Positions 1-21,678 of a stretch of 21,678 nucleotides of DNA are shown in pieces (position 1 is the first letter of the stretch; every line of letters starts with the position of its first letter). The notes beneath the pieces were generated by a model. That model searched no databases and was not told the origin of the DNA. It was given only the letters and a program-made list of their open reading frames with translations. This DNA is from a virus, in UHGV virus genome UHGV-0168745; one strand, given 5' to 3'. Made by a program: the position numbers and the translations under genes.

Positions 1-4
1 GAAA

Positions 5-697
5 ATGGTGGGGCAGGTAACAAAGCTGAAGGAAGTGACGATTAACAGCAACCAGATGCTTTTGGAAATCGTGAATGAAGGCGACCACGTAGACGTCGAC
101 ACAATCCTATGCACGTTTACTGACGACTTGACAGGCGATATGAGTGCCTTTAGTCAGGAAGCAGCCGCAACGTTGCAAAGTTTAAGTTCGTACGCACCTC
201 GTGCAGGGGTACGTGGTATCGTGGATAAAATCGAAGTGGTGTATCACGGTGAAACCGAAGACATGACACCAAGTCTTGCTGAACTGGTGCGTAAATACGA
301 CAGAATTCGTCGTAAAGCGGCACTGGCAGTCGGTCGTGGTGATCCGGTTTCAGGTAGCGTAAACGGTGACTACCGTGTCGAGGGTGTACCATTGGCCTTT
401 AACTCACTGTGTGTTCGATTCTTTATTACACACGACGTTGAGATGGCCGCAGCGGATAAGATGGTTATTGCTAACCAGCTAAAAACCACCGTACAAGAAG
501 TTATGTACGGCGACAACAAAACAGAGGATGGTGATGACCTGGACGTGCTGTTCGGTCGTGATTCCGTCGATGCGCGTATCGTAGGTTCAATCCAACGTAT
601 CGGTACCTCGAATGCTGTAGGTGAACAAGCCGGGATTCTTATCGGGCGTATACTCGATGGGGAAGCTGTGCCTGATTTACCCGCGACACTTAAATAA
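5..697 (+). CDS. hypothetical protein (230 aa from first ATG); frame is open back to the window edge, so it may be 5'-partial
   Basis: 693-nt ORF with codon usage matching neighbouring genes (CGT/CTG/CCG rich); no in-frame stop between position 2 and the ATG at 5; stop TAA at 695-697 is followed by a GC-rich hairpin. No motif recognised. Confidence 0.5.
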   Translation: MVGQVTKLKEVTINSNQMLLEIVNEGDHVDVDTILCTFTDDLTGDMSAFSQEAAATLQSLSSYAPRAGVRGIVDKIEVVYHGETEDMTPSLAELVRKYDRIRRKAALAVGRGDPVSGSVNGDYRVEGVPLAFNSLCVRFFITHDVEMAAADKMVIANQLKTTVQEVMYGDNKTEDGDDLDVLFGRDSVDARIVGSIQRIGTSNAVGEQAGILIGRILDGEAVPDLPATLK

Positions 698-3273: not shown

Positions 3274-4077
3274 ATGGACAACTTAACACTGCGTTACAAC
3301 TGTGTAGCGTTAGCCGGTGTTAACGCTCCAGCCACGCTGGAGAAAGACGCGGATGGTTATTACCGCGTACTTTTGGGTGCTTTGAATATCTTTAACTCGG
3401 AAGGGATTTTCTACGCCTATAACGAGTCTAAACACGTATTCGAACGCTCTAACATTTTCATGCGTAAAGTGAAAGCAGGGAATCTGTTCGGGGAAGAAGA
3501 TCACCCGGCACCAGAGCCTGGTATGACCGAAGCGCAATGGATTGATCGCAACGAATGGATTGAGACGAAAAACGTCTGTATGCACATTCGTGAAGTTGAA
3601 GTGATTCCAACCGACCAAACCTGTAACGGGTTGCCGGTTATGGAAATCTGGGGCTGGATTAAACCGAACCGTGAACGTGGTCCGTACTTAGCAGAAGCAC
3701 TCGAAAACCCGCACCAGAATGTGTGTTTCTCTCTGCGCGCGATCGTACGTGAAGGTTATGTGGGTGGCGTGAAAACACGTCGCTTGGATCGTCTGGTGAC
3801 GTTTGACTGGGTTATCGAAGACGGGTTGCAGATTTGTAACAAATACTCTGCGATTCAGCGCGGTAGCAAAGTTGCTCAAGAATCCACCCGCGTCCTGCTG
3901 GACCGTCGTGTTTCTCTCCAGGCGCTGGAGGACATCCTGCGGAATCCTAACACGACATCTGCTATCGCGACTGAATCTCGTCGTGGTGAAGTTCGTGCGT
4001 TGGCGCAGGAGTACCTGGCAATTGCTAACAAGAAAACTAACCTGCGTGTTATGGGTTTAGGTAACGGGAAGTGGTAA
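3274..4077 (+). CDS. hypothetical protein, 267 aa
   Basis: ORF preceded by GGGGA Shine-Dalgarno and a triple TTTTAC repeat; stop TAA 4075-4077 abuts the next ATG at 4078. Confidence 0.65.
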   Translation: MDNLTLRYNCVALAGVNAPATLEKDADGYYRVLLGALNIFNSEGIFYAYNESKHVFERSNIFMRKVKAGNLFGEEDHPAPEPGMTEAQWIDRNEWIETKNVCMHIREVEVIPTDQTCNGLPVMEIWGWIKPNRERGPYLAEALENPHQNVCFSLRAIVREGYVGGVKTRRLDRLVTFDWVIEDGLQICNKYSAIQRGSKVAQESTRVLLDRRVSLQALEDILRNPNTTSAIATESRRGEVRALAQEYLAIANKKTNLRVMGLGNGKW

Positions 4078-20605: not shown

Positions 20606-21629
20606 ATGAGAAATTACTTACGTAAACCCGCTTGGCACAGAATGCTGCGTGAGGGCACCATCGACCGCAATCAAAACGTCAAGATGTGGGTACTCCCACA
20701 TGGCGTGATTTGCGATTTAGTTCGCGTCGGTGGTATGGACATCCTGCGTAACGGAACTTACGATGCTGTCAACTCGTTTCTTGCTCGAGAGCTGGCAGAA
20801 GCCGGGTTACACGGAGAGATTCTGTTTTACACTACCCGTGTGATTCCACAAACCCTGTCGAAATGGTTAACATACTGGTTATCCAGTGACCCCGACGCGT
20901 CAGACCCCGAACTGAGTTCGGTGACGATTACGACACTGGGGCAATACCCCACTAAACCGTTACCGTTCCAGGTCAACGTGGTAGAACCGTTAATCGTGAG
21001 AGCTGGGGATGTGTTTGACATGATCAAAGTCAAATCCAGAAACCAAGCGGTGTCGCAATTCCTCATCGAAACGGAAAACGACGTGTTTCGATTGGAGCCG
21101 GTACGCAAGACAGACGCCACGCTACTGGCGGTTACCGATTACGGGATTGTCTGTCGTTCCGCAGAAGGTCACACGTTCCTGTGCACGATTTTGTCACGAC
21201 GTATCCAAGCTCAGTTAGCGCATTACAAACTGAGCTTAGAAGACATCATCGGCACCACGTTACGTATCGAATACACGATGTACACCGAAGGGAATCGACT
21301 GTGTAATTACAAGTCGCCTATCGCTTATCGCGCACTGGCGTTAGACAACCTCGGTGATTGGGTTTCAACGACATACGATGGGCCTTCGCCGTTTAAAACG
21401 ATACCGACACAACGGCCTGCATTGCTAACGGTAACGCGCTGCAACCGGGCGGAAATCTACGAAGAAAACGGGGTGATTTACGGCCTGGAACGGGAGACGG
21501 GTTTAACACTGTTTCGTTTCCGTCGTGGCCCGGAATACGGGCGTTACGCTGCTGTTTTCGAACGGGAAGGGGAACAAGAAACCTGGCTATTCGATTCGGA
21601 TTTCTCGGTTGACGTTATTGACCCTGAGG
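20606..21629 (+). CDS. hypothetical protein, 3'-partial (at least 341 aa); not in the supplied ORF track because no stop occurs before the window ends
   Basis: ATG 20606 with AAGGAG 7 nt upstream; frame translated by hand stays open to the window end and runs into adapter sequence from 21630. Confidence 0.55.
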
Positions 21630-21678
21630 CTGTCTCTTATACACATCTCCGAGCCCACGAGACCCTAAGACATCTCGT
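21630..21678 (+). other. Illumina Nextera library adapter (Tn5 mosaic end + read-2 adapter + 8-nt index + start of P7), not biological sequence
   Basis: CTGTCTCTTATACACATCT (reverse complement of the Tn5 mosaic end) followed by CCGAGCCCACGAGAC, then CCTAAGAC (index-length octamer), then ATCTCGT (start of P7 ATCTCGTATGCC...). Confidence 0.9.

Follow-up and report, generated by a model that had tools for sequence, protein, structure and literature searches.

Nextera tagmentation relies on the mosaic end (ME), the synthetic recognition end of a hyperactive transposase, and Read 1 from such a library puts out the ME, the Read-2 site, the i7 index and P7, in that order, when the read is longer than the insert. 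The 19-mer is an engineered hybrid of the outside and inside ends of IS50 and corresponds to neither natural end. A run of As after P7 is the usual signal that a read has gone off the end, and adapter contamination of this kind is what UniVec/VecScreen and NCBI FCS-adaptor are built to detect. The read-trimming strings given in PMC6460022 include the 34-nt combination of the ME and its adjoining segment, the bare mosaic end and an i5-side string. A literature search on CheckV and on inverted terminal repeats that stem from adapters turned up no paper that, by title and abstract, seemed directly on point, and one on adapter contamination in general yielded incidental mentions only.

The stretch of DNA analyzed here (the window, 21,678 nt) is the whole of the ENA contig ERZ1026973 NODE_202_length_21678_cov_5.686445, as identified by an exact-protein look-up. 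Judged by the style of the contig name, the assembler was SPAdes; the k-mer coverage is low, at approximately 5.7x. The window is a fragment of a phiKZ/SPN3US-like jumbo phage of roughly 223 kb, and carries structural and packaging genes for an S80 prohead protease, a tail tube, a tail sheath and a phiKZ gp28-like vertex protein, with profile matches in the same block to DUF7193, virion proteins and the terminase large subunit. To the GenBank phages Asesino, SPAsTU and SPN3US, the window shows a nucleotide identity of only about 75–76%. No tRNA genes or Rfam families were found in the window. The 223-kb contigs of two NCBI assemblies, GCA_020703495.1 and GCA_015624795.1, are 99% identical to the window. 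Two circular records of roughly 222 kb that are filed as plasmids, from E. coli 98232 (NZ_CP173450.1) and Enterobacter ludwigii (NZ_CP134650.1), are approximately 84% identical to it; the latter is typed as non-mobilizable, and all of its listed genes are labeled "hypothetical." These records appear to represent a phiKZ-like jumbo phage that enterobacterial isolates harbor, or that was co-purified with them, and that was mislabeled as a plasmid.

A sequence-only reading of this DNA had proposed that its last 49 nt are Nextera adapter arranged in four parts. When the read-through layout was searched for as a pattern, with the index entered as N, a single match was obtained in the window, on the plus strand at 21630–21678 and with 0 mismatches, and there were 0 matches in 100 dinucleotide-preserving shuffles; direct reading of the sequence also showed the proposed coordinates and four-part layout to be exact. 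The window end reads ...gaccctgagg, followed by CTGTCTCTTATACACATCT / CCGAGCCCACGAGAC / CCTAAGAC / ATCTCGT, and the lengths of the parts (19+15+8+7) add up to the 49 nt. The features at this end of the window are as follows:

20606–21629, plus strand: genuine part of the last gene, codons 1–341 of 374, PHROG 8136 (from translation; intact in four assemblies)
21629/21630, no strand: phage/adapter junction; the last phage base, 21629, is G and the first adapter base, 21630, is C
21630–21648, plus strand: Tn5 mosaic end CTGTCTCTTATACACATCT, 19 of 19 positions matching; sole copy in the window and none in the shuffles
21649–21663, plus strand: CCGAGCCCACGAGAC, complement of the Nextera Read-2 / i7-side adapter segment GTCTCGTGGGCTCGG, 15 of 15 positions matching
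21664–21671, plus strand: i7 sample index CCTAAGAC, Nextera XT v2 N726 (PMC7589761, Appendix B)
21672–21678, plus strand: ATCTCGT, first 7 nt of ATCTCGTATGCCGTCTTCTGCTTG, the complement of the P7 flow-cell oligo

The octamer at 21664–21671 had been likened, in the sequence-only reading, to a Nextera XT v2 i7 index, and this assignment proved right. Appendix B of PMC7589761 lists the N726 oligo as CAAGCAGAAGACGGCATACGAGAT-GTCTTAGG-... (with ...CGAGAT before the index), which is read as CCTAAGAC, and the P7 oligo itself is given there as CAAGCAGAAGACGGCATACGAGAT; since this source supplies both the N726 oligo and P7, the index and the P7 start ATCTCGT are confirmed. P7 has 24 bases, of which the window includes just the first 7 before the contig breaks off. 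Compared with an i7-side read-through from a Nextera (XT v2) library bearing N726, the window thus has the ME, CCGAGCCCACGAGAC, the 8-nt kit index and P7 in the same order, pointing outward at a contig end as on at least 139 other contig ends in IMG/VR, and no difference was seen. Within the window, the 5′ end included, no second copy of the mosaic end was detected on either strand at up to 3 mismatches, and the TruSeq adapter AGATCGGAAGAGC was not found. No notable shift in composition was seen near the window end at a resolution of 200 nt, a scale that could not resolve a feature of 49 nt.

Independent assemblies of the same phage located the point at which the biological sequence stops. Four were retrieved through the identical 458-aa protein encoded next to the last gene: Logan SRR36525901 (a 100-kb contig), NCBI GCA_020703495.1 (a 223-kb contig), Logan ERR10009646 and Logan SRR16676103. 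All four are the same as the window over the 80 nt leading up to 21629, and the BLAST alignments, with 98.8–99.4% identity over 5.6–8.5 kb, stop exactly at that base in each case. The next base is G in 4/4 assemblies (GGTTTGTTGCG...) vs. C in the window, and beyond the junction the assemblies read GGTTTGTTGCGTCTATCGGG...GCACTGTAA where the window has adapter. Because the phage base differs from the adapter base at 21630, the junction is defined to the base, and the earlier placement of the last biological nucleotide at 21629 is borne out by four assemblies that match to that position and then diverge. None of the four (0/4) carries the 49-nt tail, which is the opposite of the refuting outcome named in the sequence-only reading, namely independent assemblies in which the 49 nt run on into further genome.

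The same comparison exposed what had happened to the last gene. The ORF begins with an ATG at 20606, preceded by AAAGGAG, and remains open to the last base of the window over 357 codons, which consist of 341 real codons and 16 that are adapter-coded (AVSYTHLRAHETLRHL). In the four assemblies the gene runs for 33 more codons past 21629 to a stop, and hence its true length is 374 aa; the orthologue in the Enterobacter ludwigii record is likewise 374 aa, and the homologues Asesino gp284, SPN3US_0263 and that of phiEaH2 are 377 aa each. Similarity to the homologues, Asesino gp284 among them, ends at the junction at both the protein and the DNA level. The ORF had been suspected of artificial truncation, and it has indeed lost 33 codons and the stop and gained 16 adapter-coded residues. 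In the gene table of the ENA contig, the last ORF (3–1073 there, equivalent to 20606–21676 of the window) is entered as a 357-residue product.

The intact 374-aa orthologue matched PHROG 8136 with E = 4e-158 over about positions 1–371 of 377; it is thus a full-length member of this family, and the window copy consists of 341 aa of the same protein. In common with SPN3US_0263, Asesino gp284 and their relatives in PHROG 8136, to which it shows 58–64% amino acid identity over residues 1–341, the window gene adjoins the terminase and a divergently transcribed gene of 458 aa; unlike them, it lacks the last 33 residues and has 16 adapter-coded residues instead. PHROG 8136 is annotated as "unknown function," and a Pfam search of the intact 374-aa protein returned no domain. 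A homologue in Proteus phage 7 (MT679221.1, 240101–241123) is labeled "putative DNA ligase," a label that looks unsupported given the absence of a Pfam domain and the PHROG annotation.

Searches of public collections revealed the same string in unrelated company. An exact copy of the 49-mer caps 16 ends among 14 IMG/VR contigs, every one of them from dataset 3300045988. These copies always point outward, each with different sequence before it, and the 14 contigs have only the 49 adapter nucleotides in common with the window, whose own contig was not among the IMG/VR contigs with an identical 49-mer. In the contigs that run longer, the 49-mer continues into ATGCCGTCTTCTGCTTG and then poly-A. 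That one string should cap 14 unrelated contigs and run on into the P7 complement and poly-A bears out the assignment of the last 49 nt to adapter. The index-free 34-nt core is present in at least 120 IMG/VR contig stretches; among the matches listed, it lies 34–76 nt from a contig end in 139/140 copies and is followed, after the index, by the P7 prefix in 136/140. Elsewhere in IMG/VR the index slot holds, among the matches listed, a restricted set of recurring octamers, e.g., CGTACTAG, GTAGAGGA, GGACTCCT and TAAGGCGA; these and others we take to be other Nextera i7 indexes. No match to the 49-mer was obtained among 5,426 complete E. coli genomes.

The tail also matched GenBank phage records and PLSDB plasmid records from unrelated hosts (Bacillus, Streptococcus, Staphylococcus, Klebsiella, Acinetobacter and Paracoccus). 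Identity was 88.7–94% to the phage records among the matches listed and 90–92% to the plasmids over the full 49 nt, rising to 100% where only the 34–35-nt core aligned. Among the adapter-bearing records are ones deposited as "complete." In Bacillus phage Tomato (MT584805.1, 107537–107585) the adapter sits between two CDS pieces that are both named DNA polymerase; Escherichia phages vB_EcoM_G10400 and G4500 have it internally, and Lambda_ev110 and Streptococcus phage 142 have it at the ends of their records. The PLSDB plasmids with adapter come from S. aureus, K. pneumoniae, A. baumannii and Paracoccus, and some of these adapters lie under annotated genes, e.g., for a replication initiation protein and a ThiF family protein.

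Four IMG/VR contigs (IMGVR_UViG_3300045988_029076, _124641, _001800, and _092106) carry the Nextera adapter at both ends in inverted orientation. Adapters placed in this manner produce a false inverted terminal repeat of at least 34 nt, which could pass as evidence for a complete linear genome. The window shares the adapter tail with such catalog entries, but differs from them in having it at one end only, and consequently shows no false terminal repeat. The sole internal core among the 140 copies, among the matches listed, was seen at 3701–3734 of IMGVR_UViG_3300010234_000504 (190,684 bp). There the core runs into non-adapter sequence, TAGATTCCGACTCATAAATT..., for which reason this contig is probably a chimeric join through adapter.

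Taken together, the 49-nt tail is almost certainly an untrimmed Illumina Nextera adapter that became joined in assembly to the end of a metagenomic contig of low coverage: the ME, the Read-2 complement, the kit index and the P7 start are all present, the tail is absent from independent assemblies, and no data contradicted this explanation. Every element of the original interpretation of the contig end as a library artefact has held. That a natural end of Tn5/IS50, or of a related IS4-family transposon, lies in the phage gene and the contig broke in the repeat might be entertained, since IS50 ends are the source of the first 19 nt and insertion sequences are a frequent breaking point for assemblers; none of the results obtained here speaks for it. 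The resemblance extends to the mosaic end, which derives from the outside and inside ends and is bound by Tn5 transposase; in contrast to a natural element, the window tail has no transposase gene or IS50 sequence, but Illumina primer sites instead, and the hallmark of a natural insertion, an outside or inside end leading into IS50 sequence or a transposase gene with a 9-bp target duplication, is missing here. We consider a natural IS50 end to be vanishingly improbable and exclude it, because the mosaic end is followed by the Illumina Read-2 site, the kit index and P7, because four assemblies of the same phage have the gene uninterrupted at this site, and because the string is absent from the complete E. 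coli genomes. Adapter-mediated chimeras do exist, as evidenced by the internal 34-nt core and unrelated sequence in IMGVR_UViG_3300010234_000504, and the tail could in principle be the real sequence of another organism or of a cloning vector joined to the phage. Against such a join, every database match to the tail is an adapter remnant, located at the end of a record or contig from an unrelated taxon; as the adapter layout covers all 49 nt and nothing follows in the window, a chimeric join is extremely unlikely and is likewise excluded.

Two further proposals concern position 21629 itself. Were the phage genome truly to end at this base, with a packaging terminus followed by adapter, the SPN3US and Asesino records, whose homologous gene lies within about 1–4 kb of their ends, would be in keeping with it. 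The same gene is found mid-record in phiEaH2 and several SPFM records, however, which indicates that the record ends in SPN3US and Asesino reflect a numbering convention. Moreover, the conserved 374-aa gene around 21629 runs unbroken through the site in four near-identical assemblies and in every relative, and the window has no direct or inverted terminal repeat: the repeats detected were chance-level ones of 19–22 nt, with none at the ends. At its other end the window simply breaks off within a 1388-aa gene, with no adapter; the ORF at 5–697 (window 1–697) encodes the C-terminal ~230 residues of that gene, which is intact in six other assemblies that match from base 1 and continue upstream. 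The end at 21629 was not reproduced independently, and no repeat links the two ends. A packaging terminus is therefore very unlikely, and the caution that any genome end or terminal repeat read from this site would be spurious was well placed, since neither is present and the independent assemblies read through it. That 21629 could be a preferred physical break or a Tn5-accessible site in packaged DNA, e.g., the start of a packaging series near the terminase region, strikes us as highly improbable too, and none of the results points to it.

An untrimmed Nextera adapter could have reached the contig end in the following manner. From the layout of Nextera libraries, we infer that a tagmented fragment ended at 21629 and that its insert was shorter than the read, in which case 21629/21630 would mark the Tn5 insertion point of the fragment behind the read-through read. 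Read 1 would have run through the insert into the far-side adapter, giving the observed orientation, and the reads would have entered assembly without adapter trimming. At a k-mer coverage of ~5.7x, there may have been no genuine read path competing beyond 21629, so that a de Bruijn assembler could let the contig finish in k-mers spanning genome and adapter; the path would have stopped on merging with adapter k-mers common to the library's other read-through junctions. Under this scheme a contig would end at the first k-mer common to another junction, and the tail would be shorter than k by the length of the genomic suffix that the two junctions share. For k = 55 and a 49-nt tail, that suffix would be 6 nt long, which would explain the stop after ATCTCGT and would be expected with a few thousand distinct read-through junctions (4^6 = 4096). 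Tail lengths at the 139 IMG/VR contig ends among the matches listed, taken regardless of assembler, showed a peak at 47–49, a stop at 54 and a spike at 76. This pattern is compatible with de Bruijn assembly at k = 55 and k = 77, without proving it.

An adapter on a contig end is a well-known, ordinary artefact without biological novelty, and the finding matters for data hygiene only. The contig is to be trimmed to 1–21629, dropping 21630–21678, and its last ORF marked as 3′-partial. Left untrimmed, it introduces a chimeric protein of 357 aa with the adapter-coded AVSYTHLRAHETLRHL into protein databases; given the 357-residue product on the ENA contig, a chimeric protein ending in ...IDPEAVSYTHLRAHETLRHL is likely to be found in derived protein collections. 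The artefact is widespread in IMG/VR, GenBank phage records and PLSDB plasmid records alike, and calls of completeness or of genome termini could also be misled by an adapter tail.
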